From Ectothiorhodospiraceae bacterium (GTDB lineage: Bacteria; Pseudomonadota; Gammaproteobacteria; Nitrococcales; Aquisalimonadaceae): 64,000 bases of DNA. The translations under genes and the position numbers were made by a program. This document shows, in pieces, positions 3,902 to 50,164 of the stretch. Location of the stretch: NCBI GenBank assembly GCA_020831885.1, contig JAFIFU010000005.1, positions 26,071 to 90,070 of the forward strand, written 5' to 3'. Positions within the stretch are counted from its first letter, which is position 1, and every line of letters starts with the position of its first letter. Under the pieces are notes generated by a model. The model saw nothing but the letters and a program-made list of their open reading frames with translations, was not told where the DNA came from and searched no databases.

Positions 3902-6900
3902 TTAACCGGTGGGGCGCCGCTGTCGCCGTGGGGCGCCCGGTTCCAACCAGTGCGCGGCGAAGGTATCGGCGGGCACGGGGTGGCCGAAGTGGTAGCCCTG
4001 GGCTTCGTTACAGCCCAGTTCCAGCAGGTGCCGGGCCTGCTTCTCGGTTTCCACCCCTTCTGCCACGGTCTGCAGCCCCATGGTGCGGGCCATGGCGATG
4101 ATGGTGTTGACGATCGCATGGTCGTTGCTGTCCACCAGCATGTCGCGGACGAAGGACAGATCGATCTTCAGCCCTTGCACCGGGAAACGTTTCAGATGGG
4201 CCAGGGATGAATAGCCCGTGCCGAAGTCGTCGATGGACAGGATGAAGCCGGCGGCGGTGAGTTCCTCGATGCTCTCCACGGCCCGGGCGGGGTCACGCAT
4301 GATCCCGGTCTCGGTCAGTTCAAGACAGATCTGCTGCGGAGGCACGCCTTGGGACCAGGCAATCCCCGCCAGGCGCCCGGCCAGGCGTCTGTTGTCCAGT
4401 TGCTGTGCGGAGATATTCACCGAGACCCGCCCCGGCATGTCCAGGCCCGCGTGCCGCCAGTCGGCCAGTTGGCGGCAGACCCGCGCGATCACCCAGTCCC
4501 CCACCTCGTCCATCATGCCTCGCTCTTCGGCAATGGGAATGAAACGGGCCGGGCTGATCCAGCCCAGGGCCGGGTCATGCCAGCGGAGCAGGGCCTCGGC
4601 GCCGGTGAGGCGGCCGGTGGCCATATCCACCTGGGGCTGATAGTACAATTCCAGCGCTTCGCTTCGTAATGCCTCGGCGAACCGCTTGGCCAGATCGATG
4701 CGCTCGGCGATCTCCCGGGCCATGGCGGGCTGGAACAGACAGTAGCCGCCGCCGGAGGCCTTGGCCTGGTACATGGCGATGTCGGTGTGCTGTAGCAAGG
4801 TTTCCGGGGAGGCGCCGTGTCCCGGAGCCAGGGCGATTCCGATACTGGCCTCCAGTTGGAACTCCTGACCGTCCACACGGACCGGGCTGTCCAGCGCATC
4901 CAGCAGGCGTCCGGCCATGGCCGTGGCATCCCGGGGGCCCTTCACCGGCGCCATGAACACGAACTCGTCGCCGCCCAGCCGCGCCAGTGTCTCCCCCCGC
5001 CGGACCCGGGCACGAAAACGGGCAGCCACCTCCCTGAGTACCTGGTCACCCGTCAGATGCCCCTGACTGTCGTTAATCTCCTTGAATCGGTTCAGATCCA
5101 TGAACAGCACGGCCAATTGCTGCTCACCCGGCCCCTCACGCAGTGCCACCATGGCGCGCTGCAAGCGTTCCAGGAACAGCGCCCGGTTCGGCAGCCCGGT
5201 GGTTTCGTCGTAGTACGCCAGCTTCTGGATGCGGGCCGCGTCCCCCTGGCGTTCCAGCTCGGCGGTGGCGCCGGCGGCAAAAATGCGCAGTGTGGACTGG
5301 ACGAAGGCGGTGTCCTCCGGCGGGTCCCGGAACAGGACGAAGAGCATCCCCAGGGGGTTGCCGGTGGTCCCGCTCAGGCGTTGCCCGGCACAGGCCCGGG
5401 CGTTGACGGCGCGGACGCTCCTGCTGCCCGGGAAGCGCTCCATCAGCCCGTCCGTAATGAGCAGTTCCGGGGTTTCCAGCAGTGACTGACAGGGTGTCCC
5501 CCGGAGGTTCAGCGTGACATTGGGGGCCAGTTTTCCATCGAACACGGTGGCGATGGTTCTGGCGCGATCCGCGGACCCGGGGATGAGCCGGGCCAGGAAG
5601 CCCGCATCCGCCCCGACGGCGGCGGTCATGTTGATGGCCATCTGCTCGAAAAACTGGGTATCCGACTGCGCCGAGACCGCCGCCGCCGTGCGGATCACCG
5701 CCTGCTGCAGCTTGCGCTCCCGCTCCTGCAGGCGGCGGGCTCGCAGCCCGAAGGCCACGTCCGCGGCAAGATCGGACAGCAGGCGTTTCTCCTCCGGCAG
5801 AAAGGGATCCGGATGCCCCTTGTAAAGCATCAGGACCCCGAAGGTGCGATCGTCATCCTTCAGCGGCAACCCCACCAGCCCTCCATAGCCCCGCTGCCGC
5901 GCCTGATCGAGCCAGGGCCCGAAAGGCTGGTGCTGGGTGATGTCAGCGAGAAAGACGGGTTCACCGGTGCGAATGGCCATGCCGGCGGGCCCCCGGCCTT
6001 CCGGCCGCTGGTCGCTCCAACTGAACCGGATGTCGTCCAGATAGCCCTCCACCCGGCCGGCGCGGGCCATTTGCTGGATCAGGCGGTAGTCGTCTTCCCG
6101 GGCGTAGCCGGCCCAGGCCATGACGTAGCCGCCGATGTCCACCGCCAGCCGGCAGATCTGCTCCAGCAACTCCTCCTCGTCTTCCGCGTGAATCAGCGCC
6201 TCGTTGCAGCGGCTGAGCAGCGTCAGCGCCCGGTTGGTGATCTCCAGTTCCTTCTCGTAGTGCTTGCGGTCGGTGATGGTCCGGAAATAGACGGCCAAAC
6301 CATCCGCCGAGGGGTAGGCGTGGGTCTCGAACCACTCATCCATGGTGTCCAGGTGGAATTCGCAGTGCCGTGGCTCCTGGGCCTCCCGGGCATCCCGGAA
6401 CACGTGGAGCAGGCTGTCGCGGCTGTCCGAGGCCAGCACGTCCCAGACGCGCTGGCCAAGCAGGCGTTCCCGGGGTCGGCGCAGTAGCTGTTCCGCCACC
6501 GGATTCACGTAGGAGATACGCCAGGCGTCATCCAGCAGGTAAAAGCCGTGGGGCATCTGCTCCAGAATGGCGTCCAGCCGCTGGGATAGACGCTGTTTCT
6601 CCGTGATGTCGGTGATGAAGCCTTCCAGTTGGGTCTCGCCATCAGGGCCCTCCACGGTGTGCCCGCGTTCCCAGACCCAACGCGTTTCGCCGCTGGCGGT
6701 CCGGATGCGATAGCTGAATTCGTGGCTGGTGCCCCGGGCACGGGCCTGATCCACCAACTGCTGGATACGGTCGGCGTCCTCCGGATGAATCAGGCTGGCG
6801 AAGGAGATCCGCGCGTTGTTGATCAGGTCCTCTGCGACGTAGCCGGTCAAAGCCCTGCACCCGCCGATCAGGAAAAGCATGGTCCAGTGGATGTCGTAAC

Positions 6901-14185: not shown

Positions 14186-14259
14186 GCGGGTGTAGTTCAA
14201 TGGTAGAACCTCAGCTTCCCAAGCTGATGACGTGGGTTCGATTCCCATCACCCGCTCCA
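14186..14259 (+). tRNA. tRNA-Gly (anticodon CCC)
   Basis: Cloverleaf folded by hand: acceptor GCGGGTG/CACCCGC, anticodon loop TTCCCAA, T-loop TTCGATT, encoded CCA. Confidence 0.9.
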
Positions 14260-19206: not shown

Positions 19207-19282
19207 GGCCAGGTAGCTCAGTCGGTAGAGCAGGGGACTGAAAATCCCCGTGTCGGCGGTTCGATTCCGTCCCTGGCCACCA
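19207..19282 (+). tRNA. tRNA-Phe (anticodon GAA)
   Basis: GGCCAGGTAGCTCAGTCGGTAGAGC...CTGAAAA...TTCGATT...CCTGGCCACCA folded by hand. Confidence 0.9.
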
Positions 19283-35342: not shown

Positions 35343-35538
35343 GGATGCCCGGGGTCGCGGGGACGGGCGCCGCCGGACGGGACGGGGCAGGACACGCCGT
35401 GAATACGTCCCTGTAGGCTTGTCGGCAAGGTCCCTCTCGCCGACAGTCCCGTCCCGTCCCGTCCCGTCCCGTCCCGTCCGGCACCGTCCTCAGGCCTCGT
35501 GGCTGTTCCGGCGCCCGTCCCCGCGGCCCCGGGCATCC
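35343..35538 (-). repeat. REP-like structured intergenic element, copy A (core on minus strand)
   Basis: 30-bp outer arms 35343-35372 and 35509-35538 pair at 29 WC plus 1 GU. A GGGAC/GTCCC inner stem surrounds the 30-nt core at 35390-35419, which is 28/30 identical to copy B. Confidence 0.65.
35446..35479. repeat. Pentanucleotide microsatellite (GTCCC) x 6.8
   Basis: Counted directly: six perfect GTCCC units plus GTCC. Confidence 0.95.
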
Positions 35539-35591
35539 GGTTCCCGGCATGAGCTGCCGGAATGTTCACATGTCGCCAACGGAGTTCCACG

Positions 35592-37016
35592 ATGCCACGT
35601 CGAACGAAAATCGTCGCCACGCTGGGGCCGGCCACCGATGATCCCGCCGTGCTGGAATCGGTGATCCGGGCCGGCGTGGACGTGGTCCGGTTGAATTTTT
35701 CCCATGGCCGGCTTGCCGATCACCGCCGGCGGGTGGATGCGGTGCGCGGGGTGTCCGCCCGTCTGGGAGCTGAAGTGGCGGTGCTCGGGGATCTCCAGGG
35801 CCCGAAGATCCGCATCGAACGCTTCCGTGATGGCGCCGTGGAGCTGATGGACGGTGCCGAGTTCGTGCTGGACGCCGAATTGGGCGAAAACGACGGAAAT
35901 GCGCAACGGGTCGGTATCACTTACAAGGCACTGCCCAGGGACGTGGGCGACGGCGATCTGCTGCTCCTCAATGACGGGCTTCTGGTGCTCCGGGTGCTGG
36001 GGGTGGACGGTCCGCGGATCCGTTGCCGGGTGGAGCAGGGGGGGCGGCTGTCGGACAGCAAGGGCATCAACCGCCAGGGAGGAGGCTTGTCCGCCGGGGC
36101 ACTGACTGACAAGGACCGCAAGGATATCGCCGCCGCCGCCGCGCTGGACGTGGACTATCTGGCCGTGTCCTTCCCCCGCAATGCGGACGACATACACCAG
36201 GCCCGCCGTCTCCTGCGGGAGGCCGGGGGCGCCGCCGGGATCGTGGCGAAGATCGAACGTGCCGAGGCGGTGAAGGACATTGATGCCATCACCCAGGCAT
36301 CGGATGCGGTCATGGTGGCCCGGGGCGATCTGGCGGTGGAGATCGGCGACGCTGAACTTCCCGGCGTGCAGAAGCACATCATCGCCCGGGCACGGGAACT
36401 GAACCGGGTGGTGATCACCGCCACGCAGATGATGGAATCCATGGTGGACAGCCCGAGCCCCACCCGGGCCGAAGTGCTGGATGTTGCCAACGCGGTGCTG
36501 GATGGCACCGACGCGGTGATGCTGTCCGCGGAAACCGCCACCGGGAAATACCCGTTGCGCACCGTGGAGGCCATGGCGCGGGTCTGCGAGGGTGCCGAGC
36601 GCCACCGCTCGATCCGGCGGTCCAGCCATCGCCTGGACAGCCATTTCGAGCGTATCGACGAAGCCATTGCCATGGCCACCATGTACACGGCGAATCATCT
36701 GGACGTGCGTGCCATCCTGGCGTTGACGGAGTCCGGTGCCACCGCCCTCTGGATGTCACGCATCAGCTCCGGCATCCCCATCTACGCCCTGACCCAGCAC
36801 GAGCGGACCCGCCGCCGGGTCAAGCTCTATCGCGGCGTTTACCCCGTGGCGTTTGATGTGGTTCACACCGACCCGGGGCACATCCTTCAGGATGCGGTGT
36901 CAACGCTCAAGCGCCTTGGCGCGGCAACGACAGGGGATCTGGTGATCGTGACCAAGGGGGATTTTTCCGGTGTACCCGGAGGCACGAACGCACTGAAAAT
37001 ACTCAGCGTTTCGTGA
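35592..37016 (+). CDS. pyk: Pyruvate kinase
   Basis: [18 protein letters not shown] and [11 protein letters not shown] motifs. Confidence 0.9.
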
Positions 37017-37049
37017 ACGCACCGGAATAGGGCATCCCCCGCCCTTTTA

Positions 37050-37066
37050 TGCACGGAGATGGTGCG
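37050..37066. promoter_or_regulatory. NtrC-like enhancer dyad TGCACG-N5-GGTGCG
   Basis: 10/12 match to TGCACC-N5-GGTGCA. Centred about 90 bp upstream of the -24 element at 37143. Confidence 0.3.
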
Positions 37067-37142
37067 CTTGCCCTGTCGTGGGCCGGATCCGACGGTCGTC
37101 TGAAGTCTGACAAATGCCCGGTTTTATTGTGTTCTTAGCTGT

Positions 37143-37158
37143 TGGCCCCAGGCTTGCA
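37143..37158 (+). promoter_or_regulatory. Candidate sigma54 promoter TGGCCCCAGGCTTGCA
   Basis: Matches TGGC-N7-TTGCA with correct -24/-12 spacing. Lies about 75 nt upstream of the riboswitch. Confidence 0.45.
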
Positions 37159-37234
37159 CAGTGTCCTGGAGCACGCAGGTGTGTCACTGCCCAACGGGGT
37201 ATGCGTTGCCCACAATCTGGAACACCAATGGGTG

Positions 37235-37326
37235 ACTAGGGTTCCGGTCCGCGTCGGCGGATGACTGGTCCGAGAGTCACCGACCTCTCCCAGAGGGGTT
37301 ACACGGCGGGACAAAAGCCCGGGAGG
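37235..37326 (+). promoter_or_regulatory. Guanidine-I riboswitch (ykkC-yxkD motif)
   Basis: All hallmark blocks are present in order: ACUAGGGUUCCGG ... CUGGUCCGAGAG ... ACACGGCGGGACAAAAGCCCGGGAG. Sits 55 nt upstream of the transporter gene. Confidence 0.85.
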
Positions 37327-37381
37327 TCTACGTGATGCTCCTGTGCTGTGTTCATCCGGTAAGCCCGATGGGAGAGTGACC

Positions 37382-38467
37382 ATGTCCAATAGCTCCATCC
37401 GCAAACGCTTCGCCGCGCTGGCCGTTTCTCTCGGCCTGATCCTCACCGTACCGTTTTCCACGCTGGCCACGGCCCAGGAACGGGATAGCTTCCGCATCGC
37501 CTGGAGCATCTACGTGGGCTGGATGCCCTGGGGCTATGGCGAGGCCGAGGGCATCGTCCGGAAATGGGCCGACAAGTACGACATCGAGATCGAGGTCGTG
37601 CAGATCAACGACTACATCGAGTCCATCAACCTCTACACCGCCGGCTCCTTCGACGGCGTCACCGCCACCAACATGGATGCCCTGACCATTCCCGCCGCCG
37701 GGGGCGTGGATACCACCGCGCTGGTCGTGGGCGACTTCTCCGACGGCAACGACGGCGTGGTGCTCAAGGGGACCGACAGCCTGGAGGACATCGAAGGCAA
37801 GCGTGTCCACCTGGTGGAATTGTCCGTCTCCCACTACCTGCTGGCCCGGGCGCTGGAGTCCGTGGGCATGACGGAACGTGACATCCGCGTGGTGAATACC
37901 TCCGACGCCGACATTGTTGCTGCCTTCAATTCCCGCGACGTGGAAGCCGTGGTGACCTGGAATCCGCAACTGGGCGAACTGCGCCGCATGAACGACGCCA
38001 ACGTGGTGTTCGACTCCTCGCAGATCCCCGGCGAGATCATGGACCTGCTGGTGGTGAACACCGAGGTGCTGGAAGCCAACCCCGCCTTCGGCAAGGCTCT
38101 GGCCGGCGCCTGGTATGAAATCATGAGCATCATGCAGGGCGATGACGAGGCCGGCCGTGAAGCCCGGAGCGCCATGGGCGACGCCGCCGGTACCGACCTG
38201 GAAGGCTACGAAGCCCAATTGGCCTCCACCACCATGTTCTACGACCCGGCCGAGGCGGTGGCCTTCGTGGAGAGCGGCAGCCCGCAGGAGACCATGGAGA
38301 GCGTCCGCCAGTTCGCCTTCGAGCACGGCCTGCTGGGCGAGCGGGCCCCCAACCCCGATTTCGTCGGCATCCAGTTCGCCGACGGCTCCATCCTCGGCAG
38401 CGAGTCCAACGTCAAGTTCCGCTTCAACGTGGATTACATGCGTATGGCGCGGGATGGGGAATTATAA
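37382..38467 (+). CDS. ABC transporter substrate-binding protein (NitT/TauT type, urea-carboxylase-region family)
   Basis: Signal peptide FAALAVSLGLILTVPFSTLATAQE and an NMT1-like body. GGAGAG lies 5 nt upstream of the ATG. Confidence 0.85.
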   Translation: MSNSSIRKRFAALAVSLGLILTVPFSTLATAQERDSFRIAWSIYVGWMPWGYGEAEGIVRKWADKYDIEIEVVQINDYIESINLYTAGSFDGVTATNMDALTIPAAGGVDTTALVVGDFSDGNDGVVLKGTDSLEDIEGKRVHLVELSVSHYLLARALESVGMTERDIRVVNTSDADIVAAFNSRDVEAVVTWNPQLGELRRMNDANVVFDSSQIPGEIMDLLVVNTEVLEANPAFGKALAGAWYEIMSIMQGDDEAGREARSAMGDAAGTDLEGYEAQLASTTMFYDPAEAVAFVESGSPQETMESVRQFAFEHGLLGERAPNPDFVGIQFADGSILGSESNVKFRFNVDYMRMARDGEL

Positions 38468-38483
38468 GAACCCGTCTGCTGAT

Positions 38484-38585
38484 CCCGGGCGGTGAAATCC
38501 TCCGGGACCGTCAGCCGCATGGACGCGGCTGTCGAGCCTACATGGATGTATTCACGGCGTGTCCCGGAGGATTTCACCGCCCGGG
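38484..38585 (+). repeat. REP-like structured intergenic element, copy B
   Basis: Perfect 25-bp arms (38484-38508 and 38561-38585) enclose the hairpin CAGCCGC-ATGGAC-GCGGCTG and the core AGCCTACATGGATGTATTCACGGCGTGTCC (38535-38564). Confidence 0.7.
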
Positions 38586-38643
38586 GGCAGCTGACACCAC
38601 ATTGAACTGAAAGCCACTACCAGACACCGGTATCAGGTCGCCC

Positions 38644-39465
38644 ATGAAGCGCATCATCAACCAAACGCCGAACCGCCCCACCGGCCTCGCGCTGGGCCTG
38701 CTGCCCTTCGTGCTGGTGCTGCTGGTCTACATGGTGGCCTCTGCGGCGCGGCTGGCGGAGAATCCCAATGATCCGCTGCTGCCCTCGCTCTCCGCGATGG
38801 CGGAATCGTTCCAGCGGCTTGCCACCGAACCCAGCCGCCGCACCGGCGACCTGGTGCTCTGGGTGGACACCGCGGCCAGCCTCACCCGGCTTGGTCTCGG
38901 CGTGCTGATCAGCATGGCCATGGGCCTGATGGTGGGCATACTCACTGGCCTGATCCCCTACGTGCGGCGGGCGTTTTCTCCGTTCGTCGCCGTGCTCTCC
39001 ATGATCCCGCCCCTGGCCATGCTGCCCATTTTGTTCATCGCCTTCGGCGTTGGCGAACTGGCCAAGGTGATGCTGATCATCTTCGGCATCGCCCCGTTCA
39101 TCATGCGTGACGTGCAGCAGCGCGTGGAGGAACTCCCCACCGAGCAACTGGTGAAGGCCCAGACCCTGGGCGCGTCCACCTGGCAGATCATGCTGCGGGT
39201 GGTGCTACCCCAGGTGTTCCCGCGGCTGCTGGATGCGACGCGGCTGGCACTGGGCTCCGCCTGGCTGTTCCTGATCGCTTCCGAGGCCATCGCCGCCACC
39301 GAAGGGCTGGGTTACCGTATCTTCCTGGTGCGCCGCTACCTGGACATGGAAACCATCCTCCCCTACGTGGCCTGGATCACCCTGCTGGCCTTCACGGCAG
39401 ACATCCTGTTGCGGCTGATCACCCGCTACTGCTTCCCCTGGTACGGCGGAGGGAGGTCCCGATGA
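38644..39465 (+). CDS. ABC transporter permease
   Basis: Six hydrophobic segments and an EAA-loop-like GASTWQIMLRVVLPQVFPRL. Confidence 0.9.
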   Translation: MKRIINQTPNRPTGLALGLLPFVLVLLVYMVASAARLAENPNDPLLPSLSAMAESFQRLATEPSRRTGDLVLWVDTAASLTRLGLGVLISMAMGLMVGILTGLIPYVRRAFSPFVAVLSMIPPLAMLPILFIAFGVGELAKVMLIIFGIAPFIMRDVQQRVEELPTEQLVKAQTLGASTWQIMLRVVLPQVFPRLLDATRLALGSAWLFLIASEAIAATEGLGYRIFLVRRYLDMETILPYVAWITLLAFTADILLRLITRYCFPWYGGGRSR

Positions 39466-40259
39466 GCGCTGTGACGGCCAGAAACCTTTGGAAGGAATAC
39501 GACAGCGATGTGGTGCTGGAGAACATCGACCTCCATGTGCCCGCCGGCGAGTTCGTCACCATCGTCGGCGCCTCCGGCTGCGGCAAGAGCACCTTCCTGC
39601 GCATGCTGCTGGGGGAGGAGAGTCCGACCCGTGGCGAACTGCTGCTGGACGATGCGCCGATGCCCGCCGAGCCGGGACCGGATCGGGGGGTGGTGTTCCA
39701 GAAATACTCCGTGTTCCCGCACCTGACCGCCTTGAAGAACGTGATGGTGGCGGACGAGCTGGCCGGTGCCCGGCTCACCGGCAGGTTGTTCGGCAGCGCC
39801 CGTCGGCAGGCGCGGGAACGGGCCATGGACATGCTGCAGGCGGTGGGGCTGGATCACGCCGCCGACAAGTATCCCAGCGAACTCTCGGGCGGCATGCAGC
39901 AGCGCCTGGCCATCGCCCAGGCGCTGATGAAGGACCCGAAGGTGCTGCTGCTGGACGAGCCATTCGGTGCGCTGGACCCGGGCATCCGCAAGGACATGCA
40001 CGCGCTGATCCTGGATCTCTGGCAGCGCCGGGGGCTGACCGTGTTCCTGGTCACCCACGACCTGCAGGAAGGTTTCACGCTGGGCAGCCGCCTGCTGGTG
40101 TTCGACAAGGTGCGCCACGATCCGCAGGCCCCAGGGGCCTACGGCGCCAACATCACCTATGACATTCCGCTGCAGCGGCAGAACCCCGCACTGTACGACG
40201 AAGTGCGGGAACGCGTGGCGGCGGCGGAGCAGGAAACGTTGAAGGAGAGCACGCGATGA
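39462..40259 (+). CDS. ABC transporter ATP-binding protein
   Basis: Walker A GASGCGKST, signature LSGGMQQR and Walker B LLLDEPFGALD. Overlaps its neighbours by 4 nt. Confidence 0.9.
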   Translation: MSAVTARNLWKEYDSDVVLENIDLHVPAGEFVTIVGASGCGKSTFLRMLLGEESPTRGELLLDDAPMPAEPGPDRGVVFQKYSVFPHLTALKNVMVADELAGARLTGRLFGSARRQARERAMDMLQAVGLDHAADKYPSELSGGMQQRLAIAQALMKDPKVLLLDEPFGALDPGIRKDMHALILDLWQRRGLTVFLVTHDLQEGFTLGSRLLVFDKVRHDPQAPGAYGANITYDIPLQRQNPALYDEVRERVAAAEQETLKESTR

Positions 40260-40999
40260 GCGCATTGCGCGATATCGAGGACCGTATGGTGCACACCGAG
40301 ACCGTGCCCGGAGCCCGTTACTGGTCGCTGGTGATCCGGCGCGGTTTCACGCTGCGGCTGGTGGACGTGGAGGGTCGTGCCAACGTGTCCGCGCTGCTGT
40401 TCAACCCGCAGAACGTGCTGGAGCGCTACAACGCACCGGACACGCTGAAGGGTCAGCACACCTCGAAGCTCACCAAGGGCAACATGCTCTATTCCGACAT
40501 GGGGCGGGTGATGCTCTCCATCGTCGAGGACACGGTGGGCTGGCACGACACCATCGGCGGCGTCAGCGATGCGTCCATGGTCCGGCAGCAGTATGGCGAG
40601 CAGCGCTACCAGGAGCACCGCAACGCGTTCTACCGCAGTGGTCGTGAACTGTTCCTGATCGAGCTGCAGAAATGGGGCCTGGGCCGGCGCGACCTGGTGC
40701 CCAACCTGAACTTCTTCAGCAAGGTCTCCGCGGACCTGGACGGCACGCTGCGCTTCGCCGACAACCACAGCCAGCCCGGTGCTTATGTCGATCTGCGTGC
40801 CGAGATGGACACCCTGGTGGTGCTGAACACCGCGCCGCATCCCATGGACCCGTCCACCGAGTACCGCCCCGGAATGTTGAAGCTGGCGATCTACCGCGCC
40901 CCGCCGGTGGACCCGGAGACGGACGTCTGCGTGAACTTCCGCCCGGAAAACGCCCGCGCCTACGCCAACACCCGCATCCTCAACTGTCAGGAGGCCTGA
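40256..40999 (+). CDS. Urea-carboxylase-associated DUF1989 protein (probable carboxyguanidine deiminase subunit)
   Basis: Family pattern and position directly upstream of the carboxylase. Paralogous to the next gene. Confidence 0.8.
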   Translation: MSALRDIEDRMVHTETVPGARYWSLVIRRGFTLRLVDVEGRANVSALLFNPQNVLERYNAPDTLKGQHTSKLTKGNMLYSDMGRVMLSIVEDTVGWHDTIGGVSDASMVRQQYGEQRYQEHRNAFYRSGRELFLIELQKWGLGRRDLVPNLNFFSKVSADLDGTLRFADNHSQPGAYVDLRAEMDTLVVLNTAPHPMDPSTEYRPGMLKLAIYRAPPVDPETDVCVNFRPENARAYANTRILNCQEA

Positions 41000-41002
41000 G
41001 CA

Positions 41003-41653
41003 ATGTCCGGACAGAACCTGATCGAGAGCCCGCTGGACCCGAACAAGGCCCTGTACCGCCACGTGGTTGCAGCCGGCGAGCCCTGGATGCACGAACTGAA
41101 AAAGGGTCAGACCCTGCGCATCCTCGATCTGGAAGGCAACCAGGCCGCCGACACGCTGTTCTACAGCCTGGAGCGCCCCACCGAGGAGCACTACAGCGCG
41201 GTGCATACCATCCGCGCCCAGGGCAACGCCTACCTCACCGCGGGCTCGGTGCTGCGCTCCAATGAAGACCGCCCCATGCTCACCATCACCGCCGACACCT
41301 GCGGCCGCCACGACACCCTGGGCGGCGCCTGCGCGGCGGAGTCCAACCAGGTGCGTTACGCGCTGGAAAAGAAGCCCATGCACAATTGCCGGGACAACTT
41401 CCTCACCGCCATCGCAGAGAGCCACTACGGCCTCGGCAAGCGCGACGTGGTGCCCAACATCAATTTCTTCATGAATGTCCCGCTGACGCCGGAGGGCGGC
41501 CTCACCTTCGAGGACGGTATCTCTGATGCCGGCAAGTACGTGGAAATGCGGGCGGAAATGGACGTGATCGTGCTGGTCTCCAACTGCCCCCAGCTCAACA
41601 ACCCGTGCAACGCCTACAACCCCACGCCGGTGGAGATGCTGATTTGGGACTGA
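41003..41653 (+). CDS. Urea-carboxylase-associated DUF1989 protein (second subunit)
   Basis: [23 protein letters not shown] and [11 protein letters not shown] motifs. Confidence 0.8.
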
Positions 41654-41723
41654 ATCGGGGGTGCAGCGTGGGGGTGCGGGCTCCGGTCCGGCCGTGTGTG
41701 GTGACAGCTCCGCCTACCTCAGG

Positions 41724-41931
41724 TCCGAGGCGGGGAAGCTCGTTCCGGACTGGCGGCCGGATGGACCCGGCCGACAAGCCTACATGGGTGAGGCCGATCA
41801 AGGGAAAGCATTGCTTTCCCCGGCCGAACGGGTTGGCCACGGATGGCCAACCCTGGCCCCGCAAGCGAAGCAGGAACGCGTAGCGACGCGGGGATTTACG
41901 GCGTGTCCGGAACGAGATTCCCCGCCTCGGG
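41724..41931 (+). repeat. REP-like structured intergenic element, copy C, with a 104-bp internal insert
   Basis: Arms 41724-41749 and 41906-41931 match at 24/26. Contains the hairpin GGCCGG-ATGGAC-CCGGCC. The core is split into AGCCTACATGG (41777-41787) and GGATTTACGGCGTGTCC (41892-41908). Confidence 0.6.
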
Positions 41932-41975
41932 CCGGAACGAAGCCCCCCAGCAACACCCCGAACAATCCTCCTTCC

Positions 41976-42025
41976 CACCGGGGACGACCCCGGTGTGCCC
42001 TGAATCCCCGCGGGACGACCCGTGG
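41976..42025 (+). promoter_or_regulatory. Candidate guanidine-II (mini-ykkC) riboswitch
   Basis: Two tandem hairpins with ACGA tetraloops, CACCGGGG-ACGA-CCCCGGUG and CCGCGGG-ACGA-CCCGUGG, joined by a 12-nt linker. Ends 18 nt before the carboxylase ATG. Confidence 0.6.
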
Positions 42026-42043
42026 ACCGGTTCCGGAACTGCC

Positions 42044-45000
42044 ATGTTCACCAAGGTACTGATTGCCAATCGCGGCGCCATTGCCTGCCGCATTATCCGC
42101 ACGCTGAAAAGACTCGGCGTCCAGTCCGTCGCCGTCTACAGCGAAGCCGACCGGCATTCCTTGCATGTCCGCCAGGCCGATGAGGCCGTTTGCATCGGCA
42201 AGGCCGCCGCCAGCAGCTCCTATCTGGATGCCGAACGCATCCTGGAGGCGGCGCGGGAGACCGGCGCCCAGGCCATCCACCCCGGCTACGGTTTCCTGTC
42301 GGAAAATGCCGAATTCGCCGAAGCCTGCGAGGCCACCGGCATCGCCTTCATCGGCCCCACGCCGCAGCAGCTCCGCGAATTCGGCCTCAAGCACACCGCC
42401 CGCGCGCTGGCGGAGCGCAACGGCGTGCCCATGCTGCCCGGCACCGGCCTGCTGGAAGACCCGGAGCAGAGCGTGGCCGAGGCGGCGCGGATCGGCTACC
42501 CGGTCATGCTCAAGAGCACCGCCGGGGGCGGCGGCATCGGCATGCAGATCTGCCATGACGAAAAACAGCTGCGCGAGGCCTACGACTCCGTCAAACGGCT
42601 CTCGCAGAACAATTTTTCCAACAGCGGCATCTTCCTGGAGAAATACGTCCAGCACGCCCGCCACATCGAGGTACAACTGTTCGGTGACGGCAAGGGGCAG
42701 GTGATCGCGCTGGGCGAGCGCGACTGTTCGCTGCAACGGCGCAACCAGAAGGTGGTGGAGGAGACCCCGGCACCGAACCTGGACGATGGCGTGCGGCAGC
42801 AACTGCTGGAGGCCGCGGAAACCCTGGGCCGTGGTGTGCGCTACCGCTCCGCCGGCACCGTGGAATACATCCTGGATGCGGATACCGGCGAATTCTACTT
42901 CCTGGAGGTGAACACCCGGCTGCAGGTGGAGCACGGCGTCACCGAGGAAGTCACCGGCGTGGATCTGGTGGAATGGATGGTGCGCGGCGCGGCGGACAAT
43001 CTGCCGGATCTGGAAAGCCTGCGGCCGGGCAAGGCCGACGGCCATTCCATTCAGGTGCGGCTGTACGCGGAAGACCCCGGCAAGCAGTTCCAGCCGTCCA
43101 CCGGCCTGCTCACCGAGGCCAGCTTTCCGGCCGATGCGCGGGTGGACACCTGGGTGGAGCGGGGCAGCGAGATCTCCCCCTACTACGACCCGATGATTGC
43201 CAAGATCATCGTCCACGCCCCGGACCGGGCAGCGGCCATCGACAAGTTGCGGGCGGCGCTGGACGCCACTGCACTGAGTGGGCTGGAAACCAATCTGCTG
43301 TATCTGCGGCAGGTGGTGGCCGAGCGCGTCTTCGGCGAAGGCCGTCAGACCACCCGCTACCTGAAAGATTTCAGCTACCGCGCCAGCACCGTGGAGGTGA
43401 TCAGCCCCGGGACGCAAACCACCATCCAGGATTATCCGGGCCGCGTGGGCTACTGGGACATCGGCGTGCCGCCCTCCGGCCCCATGGACGTGCTGGCCTT
43501 CCGGCTGGGCAACCGACTGCTGGGCAATGCCGAAGACGCCGCCGGGCTGGAGCTGACCGTCAACGGCCCCAGCCTCAGGTTCAACACGCAGGCCGTGGTC
43601 GCGCTCACTGGCGCAGCGATGAAGGCCACGCTGGACGGCGAGCCGGTGCCGCACTGGCAGCCGGTCAAGGTGCAACGCGGCCAGATCCTGAAGATTGCTG
43701 CGGTGGACGGCGCGGGTGCCCGCACCTACCTGCTGTTCCGCGGCGGCCTGGACGCGCCGCTGCACATGGGTAGCCGGTCCACCTTCACGCTGGGCCAGTT
43801 CGGTGGCCACGGCGGCCGCGTGCTGCGTCCGGGTGACGTGCTGCATCTGGCGGAGGCGGAGGCCGGCGAGGCGGTCGCGTTGCCGCAGGACGCCATCCCG
43901 GCCTACGACCATCAATGGGAGCTGCGTACGATCTACGGCCCCCACGGCGCGCCGGACTTTTTCACCCGGCAGGATATCGACACCTTCTTCGCCACCGACT
44001 GGGAAGTGCACTACAACTCCAGCCGCACCGGCGTCCGGCTGATCGGCCCCAAGCCCGAGTGGGCGCGGGAGGACGGCGGCGAGGCGGGGCTGCATCCGTC
44101 CAACATCCACGACAACGCCTACGCCATCGGCACCATCGACTTCACCGGCGACATGCCGGTTATCCTCGGCCCGGACGGCCCCAGCCTGGGCGGCTTCGTC
44201 TGCCCGGCCACCATCGTCACGGCCGACCTGTGGAAACTGGGTCAGCTCAAGCCCGGCGACACCCTGCGCTTCCTGCCGGTGAGCCTGGACGAGGCCAACC
44301 GCCTGGAGCGCGAGCAGGACGCCGCCATTGCGCAATTGCAGCCGGTGGATCAGCCTGCGCAGCCGGCGGCCATCACCACGCCGGTCCTGAAGGAGGACAA
44401 GGACAACGGCCACCCGGTGGGCGTCACCTACCGACCGGCCGGCGACAAGTACCTGCTGGTGGAATACGGGCCCATCGTGCTGGACCTGAACCTGCGTTTC
44501 CGCGTCCAGGCCCTGCTGGAATGGCTCACCGAGCAAGACATCACCGGCATCGTGGAGATGACGCCCGGCGTGCGCAGCCTGCAGATCCACTACGAGCCCA
44601 GGCAGTTGCCGCTGGCGCGGCTGATGCAATTGCTGGAGCAGGGCGAGGCGGAGCTGAAGGACCTGTCCGATGCCGAGCTGCCGTCGCGCATCATCCACCT
44701 GCCGCTGGCCTGGGATGACAGCCAGACGCGCTTGGCCACGCAGAAATACATGCAGTCGGTGCGCAAGGACGCGCCCTGGTGTCCGCGCAATATCGACTTC
44801 ATTCGCCGCATCAACGGCCTGGAGAGCGAAGCGGAGGTCAAGCGCATCGTCTATGACGCGGCCTACCTGGTCATGGGTCTGGGCGACGTCTACCTGTCAG
44901 CGCCACTGGCCACCCCGGTGGATCCGCGCCACCGGCTGGTCACCACCAAGTACAACCCGGCCCGCACCTGGACGCCGGAGAACGCCGTGGGCATCGGCGG

Positions 45001-45646
45001 TTCGTACATGTGCATCTACGGCATGGAAGGCCCCGGCGGCTACCAGTTCGTGGGCCGCACGCTGCAGATCTGGAACCGCTACAAGCAGACCCCGGAATTC
45101 CAGCGGCCCTGGCTGCTGCGCTTCTTCGACCAGATCCGTTTCTACGAGGTCTCGGAAGAGGAATTGCTGGCCATGCGTGACGCCTTCCCCAAGGGCGGTG
45201 TGCGGCTTGAGATCGAGGACACCACGTTCTCCCTGGCACGTTACAACCGCTTCCTGGAGGACAACCGCGACAGCATCCAGGCCTTCAAGCAGACCCAGCA
45301 GGCTGCCTTCGAAGCCGAGCGGCAGCACTGGATCGACACCGGCCAGGCCCACTACGAGGCCGACGCGGAGCCACCACCGCCGGAACCGGAAGGCGTCGAC
45401 CTGGCCGACGGCGAATCCGCCGTGGAAGGCCATGTGCACGGCAGCCTCTGGGCGCTGGACGTGAAGGTGGGCGACCGGGTGGAGCCGGGCCAGCAACTGC
45501 TGGTGCTGGAATCCATGAAGATGGAAATCCCCGTGCACAGTGATGCGGCCGGCGTTGTGAAACGGCTGTTGTGCGCCGAAGGCGCCCAGGTGGTTCCCGG
45601 TCAGGTGCTCCTGATCATAGAAGAAACGACGGGAGATGTGGCATGA
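42044..45646 (+). CDS. Biotin-dependent urea carboxylase family enzyme (likely guanidine carboxylase)
   Basis: Start [20 protein letters not shown] (biotin carboxylase). Central KipI/KipA-like carboxyltransferase region and a C-terminal biotinyl motif LESMKME. The 67 codons upstream in the track ORF cover the riboswitch and repeat. Confidence 0.9.
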
Positions 45647-47451
45647 CTCTGCTGAGTGTGACCGAACTGCTGCAGCGCTACCGGACTGCTGCCTTGACTC
45701 CCCGCGCCCACATGAGATCCGTGATGGGCGCGGTCCGGGAGGCGGATGCGCGGAATATCTGGATCACAACACTGACCGATGAACAATTGGACCCTTATCT
45801 GCAGCGGCTCGAACAGGCTGACCCGGAGGCGTTGCCCCTGTACGGTGTGCCCTTTGCCATCAAGGACAACATCGACCTGGCCGGCGTACCCACCACCGCC
45901 GGCTGTCCGGCGTATGCCTATACACCCCAGACCTCGGCCTTTGTGGTACAGCGACTGATCGATGCCGGTGCCATTCCGGTGGGGAAAACCAACCTGGATC
46001 AGTTCGCCACCGGGCTGGTGGGTACGCGCTCCCCGTACGGGGCCTGCGGCAACGCCTTCGACCCTGCGTATGTGTCCGGGGGATCCAGCTCCGGCTCCGC
46101 TGTCGCCGTGGCGCTGGGGCAGGCGGCGTTCTCACTGGGCACCGACACCGCCGGTTCCGGTCGGGTGCCGGCAGCGCTGAACAACCTGGTTGGGGTGAAA
46201 CCCACCCGCGGCACCCTGAGCGCATCCGGCGTGGTGCCGGCCTGTCGCACGCTGGATACCATCTCGATATTCGCGCTGACCTCCGCGGATGCGCAGCGGG
46301 TGCTGGACGTGGCCTCCGTCTACGATCCGGAGGATGTCTACGCTCGACGGGATCAGGTGCCGGTGCTGGGTCATGGCAGCATCCCGTCCCAGCGCTTCCG
46401 CTTTGGCGTACCGCTTTCGGAGCAACTCGCGTTCTTCGGTGACGAGGCCGCGAAGACACTGTTCCGGCAGGCTGTGGCGCGCTTGCAGGCCCTGGGTGGC
46501 GAGTGTGTGGAACTGGATTTCGAGCCGTTTCTGGAAGCGGCGCGCCTGCTCTACGAGGGGCCCTGGGTCTCCGAGCGCTACACCGCTATCAGGGACTTCA
46601 TCGAACGTCAGCCGGAGGCGTTGTTCCCGGTCACCCGCCAGATCATCGGCGGAGGCGCCACCCCGCTGGCGACTGACGCCTTTGCCGCCCAGTATCGCCT
46701 GCAGGAACTCCGGCGCCAGTCCGAAGCGGTCTGGAGCCACATGGATCTGATCGTGACGCCTTCCGCCGGCACCATCTACACCATCGAGCAGGTGAATGCC
46801 GACCCGGTGCAACTGAACAGCAATCTGGGTTACTACACCAATTTCATGAACCTGCTGGATTACAGCGCGCTGGCCGTGCCGGCGGGCTTCCTGCCGGGTG
46901 GCCTGCCGTTCGGCGTCACCCTGTTCGCCCCGGCCTTCTACGACCAGGATCTGCTGGCGGTGGGTGATCGTCTGCACCGGGCGGGGGTGGACCGCCTGGC
47001 CACGGCCGGACGTGGCCTGCCGCGGGAGGCACCGGTGCAGGCGCGGCATGCCCACGTCATTCCGGTGGCGGTCTGTGGCGCCCATATGGAGGGTTTGGCG
47101 CTCAACCATCAGTTGACGGAACGCAATGCGCGGCATGTGGCGACCACACGCTCCGCGCCCCAGTACCGCTTCTATGTGTTGCCGGGCGGTCCGCCGGAGC
47201 GGCCGGGCATGGTGCACGTGGGGGCCGGTGGGGCCAGCATCGAGTTGGAGATCTGGGAAGTGCCCGCGAACCGTTTCGGCTCCTTCGTGGCCGGGATTCC
47301 CGCGCCGCTGGGCATTGGCAAGGTGCGGCTGGCGGATGGTGGCCAGGTGCCGGGGTTCATCTGTGAAGCGGCGGGCGCTGAAGATGCCACCGAGATCACG
47401 GAGTACGGATCGTGGCGGGCCTGGCTGGCACGTCGTCAGCCCACCAGGTAG
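45643..47451 (+). CDS. Allophanate hydrolase (amidase signature family)
   Basis: [14 protein letters not shown] amidase signature. ATGA overlap with the carboxylase stop. Confidence 0.85.
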
Positions 47452-48224
47452 ACGTCGAAGCGGGTGCTGCTGCCGACGATCCTATGGCTGGGCTCCGGCC
47501 CCGGCAGCGCCGGCGCCTTGCGGGGGCGCTTGACCACCACGCGGTGGCGTGCCGTGTCCAGGGCGGCGGCCAGCAGCCCGGGTGGATCCGGGTCGGGGCC
47601 GAGCAGCGCCTGCAGCAGTTGCATCTCCTTGCGGGACTTGGCCGTCTTGCCGGTGTCCGGGTACATGGGGTCCAGGCAGACCACATCCGGCCGGTCCGTG
47701 TCCGTCAGGCCGGCCATCACCGACACCGCCTCGCCGCAGTGTAGTTTCAGATGCCTGGCCAGTTCCGCGCCTTCCGGTTCGGCGGCGGTGCGGCGCAGGG
47801 CATCGGCGAGCATGGCGGCCAGGACCGGGGAGCGCTCCACCATCAGTACCGGGCAGCCGCGCCGGGCCAGCAGCGCGGCGTCACGGCCAAGCCCCGCGGT
47901 GGCGTCCAGCACGGTGGGGCGCTGTCCGCGCCGGGCCCCCACAGCCCGGATCAGGCCCTCGCCGGCCGCGCTGGCCTGGTGCAATCGGGGGTTATGCAGC
48001 CACTGCACGGTGACTCCCTGGCCGGGACGCATGTGGACAAGGCGCAGCTCCAGCCCGGGCCCGGTGACCAGTAATCGTAATGGCGGGCCGTTCTCCTGGG
48101 GGGGGATCAATGGCAGGCCCAGCCGATCGGCCAGCGCCCGGGCGGCGCCGGCCATGGCCTCCCCTTCATGCCAGACGGCGCATGGAGGGCTGTTTCCGGA
48201 CCGGGAGGGTTCCTGTGTTGACAT
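47436..48224 (-). CDS. rsmJ: 16S rRNA (guanine1516-N2)-methyltransferase
   Basis: VLDATAGLGRDA, DVVCLDPMYP and STRFDVY motifs. The start at 48224 is tentative. Confidence 0.75.
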   Translation of the reverse strand: MSTQEPSRSGNSPPCAVWHEGEAMAGAARALADRLGLPLIPPQENGPPLRLLVTGPGLELRLVHMRPGQGVTVQWLHNPRLHQASAAGEGLIRAVGARRGQRPTVLDATAGLGRDAALLARRGCPVLMVERSPVLAAMLADALRRTAAEPEGAELARHLKLHCGEAVSVMAGLTDTDRPDVVCLDPMYPDTGKTAKSRKEMQLLQALLGPDPDPPGLLAAALDTARHRVVVKRPRKAPALPGPEPSHRIVGSSTRFDVYLVG

Positions 48225-48373
48225 GGCGGATGATGGTCTCGTGCGGCTTTGGCGGCCCGACGGGCACTGCAGTATGCTCAATGTAGAACGAGGATGCTGA
48301 AGAAGGCCGGGAACGGCAAGATTCAGCCACGACCGTTCGACACCCCGTCCGGGGCACAACAAAGGTGGATACC

Positions 48374-50164
48374 ATGACGGAAAAATCCAGCACAGCCCAA
48401 CAGATGGACCACGAACAGATCACACGCACCCTGGCGGAGATCACCGAGAAAAGCCAGCGGCTGGTGAAGGATTTCGTTTCCCGCGAGCAGAGCGCCCATC
48501 ACATCAGCATGGATGACGCCATGCACATGAGCGGGCTGTTCCAGCAACTGGCCACCCGCATCATGGCCAACCCCATGCAGCTTGCCCAGGCGCAGATCAG
48601 TTTCTGGCACGACTATCTGGCCCTGGTCAATCAGGCCACCCTGCGGTTCTGGGGGCATGATCCGGAGCCGGTGAAGGCGCCGCAACCGGGGGACAAACGA
48701 TTCCGGCATCAGGCCTGGGAGGAGAATCCGGTTTTCGATTTCGTCAAGCAGTCCTATCTGCTGGCGGCGGACTACATCCATGCAACGGTGAAGAGTGCGG
48801 AAGGGCTGGACGACAAGACCGCGCGCAAGGTGGACTTCTTCACGCGGCAGTTTGTGGATGCCCTGTCACCCACCAATTTCCTGGCCACCAACCCGGAGGT
48901 GCTGGAGAAGACCCTGGAGACCAAGGGCGCCAATCTGCTCAACGGTCTGAAGAATCTGCTGAAGGATCTGGAGGCCGGGGGTGGCAGGCTGCGTATCGCC
49001 ATGACCGACCACAGTCAGTTCGAGGTGGGCAAGAACCTTGCGGTGAGCCCGGGCAAGGTCATTTACCAGAACGATCTTATCCAGTTGCTGCAGTACGAAC
49101 CCGCCACCGAAAAGGTGTACAAGCGCCCGCTGCTGTTTGTGCCGCCGTGGATCAACAAGTACTACATCCTGGACCTGCAGCAGGAGAACTCGCTGATCAA
49201 GTTCATGGTGGAACAGGGGCATACGGTCTTCGTCATCTCCTGGAAAAACCCCACCGGTGAATACGCCGACAAGACCTTCGAGGATTACATGAAGGAAGGT
49301 CCGCTGGCGGCTCTTGACGCCATCGAGCAGGCCACCGGCGAGCGGGATGTGAACTGCGTGGGTTACTGCCTGGGCGGCACGCTCATGGGCACCACCCTGG
49401 CGTACATGACGGAAAAGGGTGACGATCGCATCAAGAGCATCACCTACTTCACCGCCATGGTGGATTTCACCATGCCGGGGGAACTGGAGAACTTCATCGA
49501 CGACGAGCAGTTGCGCATGCTGGAGAAGCGCATGGAGGGGCAGGGCTATCTGGAAGGGCATGCCATGGCGTCCACCATGAGCGCACTCCGTGCCAACGAT
49601 CTGATCTGGTCCTTCTTTATCAACAATTACCTGAAAGGCGAGGATCCGTTCCCCTTCGATCTGTTGTACTGGAACCAGGACAGCACCAACATGCCGGCGA
49701 AAATGCACAGCTTCTACCTGCGCAACATGTATCAGGAGAACCGCCTCAAGGAACCGGGTGGCATCGTCATCGACGGTGTGCCCATCGACCTCCGCAAGAT
49801 CACCATTCCGGCCTGCTTCGTCTCCGCCATGGAGGACCATATCGCCCCCTGGAAAACGGTTTACCGCGGCGTGCATCTGCATTCCGGGCAGATCAAGTTC
49901 ATTCTCGGCGGCTCTGGTCATATCGCCGGCATCATCAACCCGCCGCACAAGAACAAGTACTGCTACTGGACCAGTACCAAGACGCCGGAGAGCCCGGAGG
50001 AATGGCTTGAGGGTGCCAAGCGTGCGGACGGTTCCTGGTGGCCGGAATGGAACCGCTGGCTGGTCCGCCGTGCCGGTGCCAAGGTGCCGGCGCGCAAGCC
50101 CGGGGACGGCAAACTGAAGCCGCTCATGGACGCGCCGGGTTCCTACGTGCTGGAGAAGGCCTGA
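48374..50164 (+). CDS. phaC: Class I poly(R)-hydroxyalkanoate synthase
   Basis: Lipase-box GYCLGG, PPWINKYYILDL and about 595 aa length. Confidence 0.9.
   Translation: MTEKSSTAQQMDHEQITRTLAEITEKSQRLVKDFVSREQSAHHISMDDAMHMSGLFQQLATRIMANPMQLAQAQISFWHDYLALVNQATLRFWGHDPEPVKAPQPGDKRFRHQAWEENPVFDFVKQSYLLAADYIHATVKSAEGLDDKTARKVDFFTRQFVDALSPTNFLATNPEVLEKTLETKGANLLNGLKNLLKDLEAGGGRLRIAMTDHSQFEVGKNLAVSPGKVIYQNDLIQLLQYEPATEKVYKRPLLFVPPWINKYYILDLQQENSLIKFMVEQGHTVFVISWKNPTGEYADKTFEDYMKEGPLAALDAIEQATGERDVNCVGYCLGGTLMGTTLAYMTEKGDDRIKSITYFTAMVDFTMPGELENFIDDEQLRMLEKRMEGQGYLEGHAMASTMSALRANDLIWSFFINNYLKGEDPFPFDLLYWNQDSTNMPAKMHSFYLRNMYQENRLKEPGGIVIDGVPIDLRKITIPACFVSAMEDHIAPWKTVYRGVHLHSGQIKFILGGSGHIAGIINPPHKNKYCYWTSTKTPESPEEWLEGAKRADGSWWPEWNRWLVRRAGAKVPARKPGDGKLKPLMDAPGSYVLEKA

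Follow-up and report, generated by a model that had tools for sequence, protein, structure and literature searches.

In Vreelandella (Halomonas) boliviensis LC1, the guanidine carboxylase operon carries a class I guanidine riboswitch (guanidine-I, also known as ykkC) at its head and a class II element (guanidine-II, or mini-ykkC) between cgdB and gca, "like in several other bacteria" (Sinn et al., Nat Commun 2025; PMC12508155). The class I RNA has a dissociation constant of 44 µM (guanidine only), and the internal class II element, which binds guanidine by in-line probing, has dissociation constants of 93 µM for guanidine and 83 µM for methylguanidine; the whole operon is induced (PMC12508155). 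Likewise, in Raoultella terrigena, Erwinia rhapontici as well as Klebsiella michiganensis, importer and deiminase genes stand behind a guanidine-I riboswitch, and, immediately downstream, carboxylase and allophanate hydrolase genes behind a guanidine-II riboswitch (PMC12186494); an earlier report already describes operons headed by class I as often holding a class II element that controls translation of the carboxylase (PMC5558903, 2017). Here, we analysed a stretch of 64,000 nucleotides (nt) from an Ectothiorhodospiraceae bacterium (assembly GCA_020831885.1, contig JAFIFU010000005.1; hereafter the window, in which position 1 is the first letter). Two adjacent hairpins at 41976-42025, in front of the carboxylase gene gca, very probably form a bona fide guanidine-II riboswitch that, judged from other representatives of the class, would act as a translational ON switch for gca and the following allophanate hydrolase gene.

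The locus has the layout of its V. boliviensis counterpart, with guanidine-I, three ATP-binding cassette (ABC) transporter genes, cgdA and cgdB, guanidine-II in the same slot, gca and the allophanate hydrolase gene. In V. boliviensis, mgdH and mgdL (methylguanidine demethylation) prolong the operon, whereas that of the window ends at the hydrolase gene; the window also has a gap of 390 nt, with a palindromic insert, between cgdB and gca. The three enterobacterial loci, which we compared through their description in PMC12186494, show the same division of the genes between the two riboswitches but belong to another lineage, the nearest relative of the window locus being a Halothiobacillus metagenome-assembled genome (MAG). 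The element itself resembles guanidine-II of Pseudomonas aeruginosa in its two ACGR-loop hairpins joined by a linker, and a helix like the P0a of that RNA is predicted in the window (Reiss and Strobel, 2017; PMC5558903; Focht and Strobel, 2023; PMC10351892); the Shine-Dalgarno (SD) sequence of the window is, however, much weaker than that of the P. aeruginosa RNA, and the tail pairings of the window are without statistical support. Moreover, the class is mostly found upstream of small-multidrug-resistance (SMR)-type multidrug-resistance transporters (PMC10351892), whereas the window element precedes a mid-operon gene for a carboxylase of 1200 amino acids. A first-pass annotation of the window had pointed to a single operon in which two classes of aptamer respond to one and the same ligand, which is right but not new (PMC5558903, 2017; PMC12186494, 2025; PMC12508155, 2025). 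The dual-riboswitch layout is already known: the class, its association with gca and the pairing of a class I element that heads the operon with a class II element before gca have all been published, and the window is one more instance, which any Rfam-based annotation would label and which adds nothing conceptually.

Both hairpins have an ACGA loop: that of P1 (41984-41987) caps a stem of 8 base pairs (bp), and that of P2 (42015-42018) one of 7 bp (Table 1). Loop-closing G-C pairs (GG-ACGR-CC) are present in both, and GGGACGACCC is found twice in the element. A scan of the whole window at the Rfam gathering scores returned four matches, namely two tRNAs, RF00442 and RF01068. The RF01068 match covers 41976-42023 and the model from end to end (1-48 of 48), with 48.2 bits versus a gathering score of 32 and an E value of 1.8e-6; in a local, permissive Rfam scan (41600-42100) the E value of this family was 1.4e-8. 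Both strands of the 64 kb were also searched for tandem ACGR-loop hairpins with stems of at least 4 bp and a linker of at most 40 nt. P1 and P2 form the only such pair in the 128 kb of searched strand, in which single ACGR-loop hairpins occur 26 times (12 and 14 on the two strands), and P1/P2 is also the one place in the window that was matched by a covariance model made from the elements of orthologous loci (51.8 bits). The RF01068 score, the sole tandem pair and the match of the ortholog-built model at this place only argue that the element is not a chance product of the background, the window having a base composition of 66% G+C. Kissing of the two loops needs a linker spanning about 50 Å at about 7.2 Å per nucleotide (PMC5558903), from which we take a minimum of about 7 nt; the linker of the window, at 12 nt, is longer than this. 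P2 ends 18 nt 5′ of the ATG of the TIGR02712 carboxylase gene, i.e., directly upstream of a guanidine-related gene. All of the geometry given in the first-pass annotation proved exact, including the coordinates and sequences of the two ACGA-capped hairpins, the single G-U pair, the 12-nt linker, the 18 nt from P2 to ATG 42044 and the gap of 390 nt, and its assignment of the pair to mini-ykkC (guanidine-II) is borne out by the RF01068 score. It had also placed a guanidine-I riboswitch at the operon head, two DUF1989 genes upstream and a carboxylase gene downstream of the element, and each of these is recovered by its family model (RF00442, TIGR03425, TIGR03424 and TIGR02712; see Table 1).

The position of the element is conserved among relatives. 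A carboxylase-based scan, with one genome per species, gave 80 loci, of which the closest to the window is that of the Halothiobacillus MAG (L001; 80% amino acid identity in the carboxylase). Its gene order is the same: guanidine-I (1575-1675) is followed by the genes for the binding protein, the permease and the ATPase, by cgdA and by cgdB, which stops at 5908; guanidine-II (5929-5975) comes next, before gca at 6001. There, the element lies 24 nt 5′ of the gca ATG in a cgdB-gca gap of 92 nt, and CCGGAA is found 8 nt before the ATG; between the window and L001, the stems differ by one compensatory and two one-sided changes, with pairing kept. In eight gamma- and betaproteobacterial loci (L001, L002, L003, L007, L008, L030, L044 and L053), guanidine-II precedes the gca ATG by 11-27 nt, and six of these eight elements reach the RF01068 gathering score; linkers of the orthologs measure 10-20 nt. 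RF00442 is present at the operon head in six of the eight loci; none was found in L003 and L007, whose contigs extend just 203 and 1880 bases upstream of gca. The question raised in the first-pass annotation, whether relatives keep both elements, is thus answered in the affirmative by L001, with seven further loci in which guanidine-II precedes gca. The ACGR loops are kept as well, and the stems covary. In an alignment of 18 sequences, GG-ACGR-CC is invariant in both hairpins, 10 of the 15 pairs show compensatory changes and 85% of the cells are paired, a percentage that is inflated because the pattern used for selection requires hairpins. The covariation score of this alignment is 0.483, versus 0.141 for shuffled alignments, of which 0 of 500 attain the observed value; with the partners slid, the score is at most 0.109.

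In ten alphaproteobacterial loci (L009, L011, L013, L021, L025, L027, L028, L033, L037 and L063), the operon has the same genes in the same order as in the window, but the internal guanidine-II lies between the ATPase gene and cgdA (at about 4280-4580 in each locus) and would therefore gate cgdA, cgdB and gca together. The element is followed there by a strong SD sequence, which in several loci is complementary to the linker (e.g., AAUUCUCU with AGGAGAAU in L021). Guanidine-I was found at the head of eight of the ten, by pattern or by Rfam; L011 has none by the strict pattern, and L063 was outside the Rfam scan. Three Enterobacterales loci (L016, L024 and L047) have the hydrolase gene upstream of the carboxylase gene, and no guanidine-II element was found in them. 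What is gained from the comparison is that class II occupies one of two slots, before gca in the gamma- and betaproteobacterial loci or before cgdA in the alphaproteobacterial ones.

Taken as a whole, the cluster is a canonical guanidine carboxylase pathway operon, in which the DUF1989 pair CgdA/CgdB corresponds to the carboxyguanidine deiminase (PMC12186494; PMC12508155). Start and stop codons overlap by 4 nt (ATGA) at the permease/ATPase (39462-39465), ATPase/cgdA (40256-40259) and gca/hydrolase (45643-45646) junctions, and cgdA and cgdB are separated by 3 nt. The genes thus overlap or nearly abut from the permease gene through cgdB, and again at gca/hydrolase, and the gap that bears the riboswitch splits these two tightly packed stretches. 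Because of the ATGA overlap of the gca stop and the hydrolase start, the hydrolase is probably translationally coupled to gca. The carboxylase, annotated as a urea carboxylase, is assigned to guanidine on account of the riboswitches and of cgdAB. A guanidine-specific carboxylase has an active-site Asp in place of Asn (PMC12186494); when the riboswitch-associated carboxylases were aligned against those of four loci without cgdAB, the residue number of the Asp not being at hand, no column that discriminates D from N was found. The functional annotation that follows for this organism is that it is predicted to import guanidine and, by way of the carboxylase pathway, to obtain nitrogen from it by assimilation.

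Table 1. Features of the guanidine carboxylase operon, of its two riboswitches and of the associated repeat elements (window coordinates)
Feature	Position	Strand	Description
Third repeat-element copy	about 35385-35451	-	common core
Guanidine-I (ykkC) aptamer, operon head	37225-37327	+	RF00442, 96.7 bits versus gathering 63, full model
ABC substrate-binding protein (uca-type), likely guanidine importer subunit	37382-38467	+	TIGR03427, 540 bits; GGGAGAG before ATG 37382
Palindromic repeat element (REP/MITE-like; repetitive extragenic palindrome/miniature inverted-repeat transposable element), binding-protein/permease gap	38484-38588	+	long hairpin, -85.6 kcal/mol, z -10
ABC permease	38644-39465	+	PF00528
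ABC ATPase	39462-40259	+	PF00005
cgdA	40256-40999	+	DUF1989 (PF09347), TIGR03425
cgdB	41003-41653	+	DUF1989 (PF09347), TIGR03424
Palindromic repeat element between cgdB and riboswitch	41722-41933	+	28-bp closing stem, -142.9 kcal/mol, z -10.2
Guanidine-II hairpin P1	41976-41995	+	8 Watson-Crick pairs, CACCGGGG-ACGA-CCCCGGUG; -15.4 kcal/mol, pairing probability about 1
Linker between P1 and P2	41996-42007	+	12 nt; predicted to supply the 5′ strand of a P0a-like helix (41999-42000 and 42002-42006)
Guanidine-II hairpin P2	42008-42025	+	CCGCGGG-ACGA-CCCGUGG, 7 bp including one G-U (G42010-U42023); -11.7 kcal/mol
3′ tail	42026-42043	+	18 nt between the end of P2 and gca ATG 42044
3′-tail pairing segments	42029-42038	+	GGUUC 42029-42033 and GG 42035-42036 pair with the linker (predicted)
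gca, biotin-dependent guanidine (annotated urea) carboxylase, 1200 amino acids	42044-45646	+	TIGR02712, 1920 bits, residues 2-1193; Pfam domains
Allophanate hydrolase	45643-47451	+	NF006043, TIGR02713

A plus-strand open reading frame (ORF) at 47464-48300 (278 amino acids) was considered as an extension of the operon of the MgdH/MgdL kind and rejected, having no family match and a low-complexity translation of Ala, Ser, Arg and Pro. Opposite this ORF lies a convergent gene on the minus strand (47436-48362), for an S-adenosylmethionine (SAM)-dependent methyltransferase (PF04445, RsmJ-like). With a convergent methyltransferase gene and a spurious plus-strand ORF beyond the hydrolase gene, the operon therefore ends at 47451, with no extension of the MgdH/MgdL type.

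Guanidine-II riboswitches are translational ON switches in which one guanidinium is bound per ACGR loop and the two loops kiss head to head (PMC5558903), and the class has been described as exclusively translational (PMC10351892). The OFF state of the P. aeruginosa representative is modelled with two helices, P0a, formed by the linker with the SD sequence, and P0b, formed by the 5′ tail with the 3′ tail; kissing separates both, and direct sequestration of the SD sequence is dispensable in this RNA (PMC10351892). An ensemble fold of the window element predicts pairing of the linker with the 3′ tail (42002-42006:42029-42033, p 0.92-0.96; C42000:G42035, p 0.72; C41999:G42036, p 0.56). The sequence GGAA at 42035-42038, 5 nt from the ATG, is the only SD-like element before gca, and in the same ensemble its unpaired probability is 0.28; UUCC at 41972-41975 could pair with it, as a possible 4-bp analogue of P0b. 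The SD sequence of gca is the weakest of the operon, the other genes of which have sites of the GGAG/GGAGG type. Thus, the statement of the first-pass annotation that there is no convincing SD sequence before gca is a fair one, GGAA alone being in the right place. From this it had concluded that the expression platform is unclear, and here a distinction is needed: the SD sequence is indeed weak, but the platform is not a blank, since a linker:tail helix over the GG of GGAA is predicted, in line with P0a and P0b (PMC10351892).

Published work on other representatives of the class would lead us to expect ligand binding, ON polarity and a release driven by kissing also for the window element, along with co-transcription of gca with the upstream genes. 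P1 and P2 would be folded at all times. Without ligand, the linker (41999-42006) would pair with the tail (42029-42036), extending P2 and covering the GG of GGAA, and the already weak ribosome-binding site of gca would be poorly used. Two guanidinium ions, one in each ACGA loop, would then bring P1 and P2 into a head-to-head kiss, for which the 12-nt linker would have to be stretched between the bases of the helices. As a stretched linker is incompatible with the linker:tail helix, the ligand would free the tail and, with it, the weak ribosome-binding site; gca would be translated, followed by the hydrolase through the ATGA coupling. With guanidine-I at the head, the catabolic enzymes would need guanidine at two independent checkpoints, a predicted double check before the ATP-consuming carboxylase is made.

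Several points weigh against this account. Support for the element comes from sequence comparison and predicted folding, and the 18 aligned sequences were chosen by a pattern that requires hairpins, a selection that affects neither the conserved position nor the Rfam scores, which are independent of it. The SD-like element of gca consists only of GGA(A). Complementarity of the tails was tested with RNAduplex, for the 5′ tail or the linker against the 3′ tail, with 500 shuffles each, in the window and 17 orthologous elements. In the window, the linker:tail and 5′-tail:3′-tail pairings (z -1.1 and -0.9) did no better than shuffles; over the 18 loci the mean z was about -0.2 (p 0.35 and 0.41), with only L001 standing out (z -2.45, 5′ tail versus 3′ tail). 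The linker:tail helix of the OFF state is a model only, because the complementarity is not better than in shuffled controls. In addition, P1 and P2 (-15.4 and -11.7 kcal/mol) are too stable for secondary-structure prediction to display switching. At the operon head, about 54-55 nt separate the end of the guanidine-I aptamer from the start of the binding-protein gene (37328-37381), and no canonical intrinsic terminator was found in this interval, where nothing but a CGGGAG/CUCCUG stem and a tail poor in U is present; because of this, we take the transcriptional half of the scheme from the literature, and the guanidine-I platform of the window may be translational or Rho-dependent, not the usual terminator. 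Finally, the 390-nt gap, with an insert that has a 28-bp stem, lies across the junction that is supposed to be co-transcribed.

The 5′ tail that precedes P1 (41966-41975) reads UCCUCCUUCC, and the CCUCCUU within it is the core of the anti-SD sequence of 16S rRNA. In the minimum free energy fold, the CCUU of this tail has as its partner an AAGG that lies in codons 4-5 of gca (42053-42056); as modelled, this pairing might serve as a long-range clamp that encloses the riboswitch and the start codon.

Three other explanations of the element, and one further reading, have to be set against a translational switch. The one that survives best, which we still consider a tentative possibility, is that the element controls mainly the fate of the RNA: a 3.6-kb gca message left untranslated would be open to Rho-dependent termination or to decay by RNases, and the mRNA of gca and the hydrolase gene would fall. 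As summarised in PMC12508155, translational riboswitches couple to Rho termination and to mRNA level (Bastet et al., 2017), and guanidine-III has been reported to control the access of RNase E (PMC12186494); the weak SD sequence makes gca especially dependent on efficient initiation. However, guanidine-II has been called exclusively translational (PMC10351892), no terminator follows P2, and an effect on RNA fate would add to the translational mechanism, not replace it.

A second explanation, which we regard as unlikely, places gca and the hydrolase gene in a transcription unit of their own, with guanidine-II as its 5′ leader and with its own promoter, or a processed 5′ end, in the gap; the locus would then consist of two neighbouring units, each under a riboswitch, instead of a single operon with a switch inside it. 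Tight packing of genes is seen on both sides of this gap but not across it, the enterobacterial genes have been presented as two riboswitch-associated sets in succession (PMC12186494), and the long gap holds a very stable palindrome, at which transcription could pause or end, or which a double-strand-specific RNase could use as its site. From the cgdB stop (41653) to the gca ATG (42044), the gap measures 390 nt, compared with 71-157 nt in the relatives, where it is nearly filled by the riboswitch; it is unusually long because about 210 nt of it are a palindromic repeat inserted in this genome only. The copies of this repeat, a family found by self-BLAST, have a common core, CGACAAGCCTACATGGRTG...TTCACGGCGTGTCC, with 3 matches versus 0.01 expected, and near-perfect closing stems of 25-28 bp; in the copy at 41722-41933, additional inner hairpins (41791-41894) take up about 100 nt. 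Copies occupy both non-overlapping intercistronic gaps of the operon, and both are absent from L001. These insertions of a palindromic, mobile repeat in two intercistronic gaps, one of which stretches the gca slot, and the very weak SD sequence of gca are what is particular to the window. Against a separate unit, the insert is specific to this genome, the almost filled gaps of the relatives leave little room for a promoter, and proteomics of V. boliviensis found the entire operon induced together (PMC12508155). A promoter and terminator scan of 36800-50000 gave no promoter-like site, and in the gap (41654-42043) neither a sigma-70-like promoter nor a terminator-like site, although at 66% G+C such a scan is weak and its result uninformative. 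In either case, a translational switch would work alike.

A further reading, distinctly improbable in our estimate, is that the repeat copies of the operon are not neutral passengers and that the insert 40 nt upstream of P1 has a role of its own. As a double-strand-specific RNase or stability site, or as an RsmA/CsrA site, it would cut or insulate the polycistronic RNA, and guanidine-II would then form the 5′ leader on a processed mRNA of gca and the hydrolase gene, uncoupled from the guanidine-I half; if this were true, a known dual-riboswitch operon would have gained a third layer of regulation, specific to the lineage. Beyond RF01068, the permissive Rfam scan of 41600-42100 gave only a sub-threshold match to RsmW and noise. 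The RsmW match (41748-41862, plus strand) lies inside the insert and has 29.3 bits versus a gathering score of 52, with an E value of 0.004 in the 501-nt search. GGA is exposed in the loops of hairpins of the insert, in GGCCGG-AUGGAC-CCGGCC around 41754-41771 and in GGGUUGGCCA-CGGA-UGGCCAACCC at 41830-41853. The latter hairpin contains CACGGAUG, which resembles the CsrA/RsmA binding consensus. The likeness of the insert to RsmW and to CsrA sites is probably coincidental.

The last explanation, that the hairpins arose by chance in G+C-rich DNA or belong to a palindromic repeat or a terminator and sense no ligand, would be in keeping with the base composition, the single ACGR hairpins on both strands and the many other hairpins in the gap, but it is effectively refuted by the single tandem pair in 128 kb of strand with a score 16 bits above gathering, by the end of the repeat at about 41933-41936, before P1, with its other copies devoid of ACGA hairpins, so that the riboswitch is not part of it, by L001, which lacks the repeat but keeps the riboswitch, by a position relative to gca that is conserved across families with covarying stems, and by the absence of a U-tract after P2.

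Elsewhere in the window, the pentanucleotide GTCCC forms a perfect tandem array of 6.8 units at 35446-35479, where it adjoins the third copy of the repeat element, upstream of a pyruvate kinase gene (35562-37016). The two tRNA genes returned by the Rfam scan (RF00005) are at 14186-14256 and 19207-19279 on the plus strand, with 72.9 and 71.8 bits, respectively, and are unrelated to the operon.

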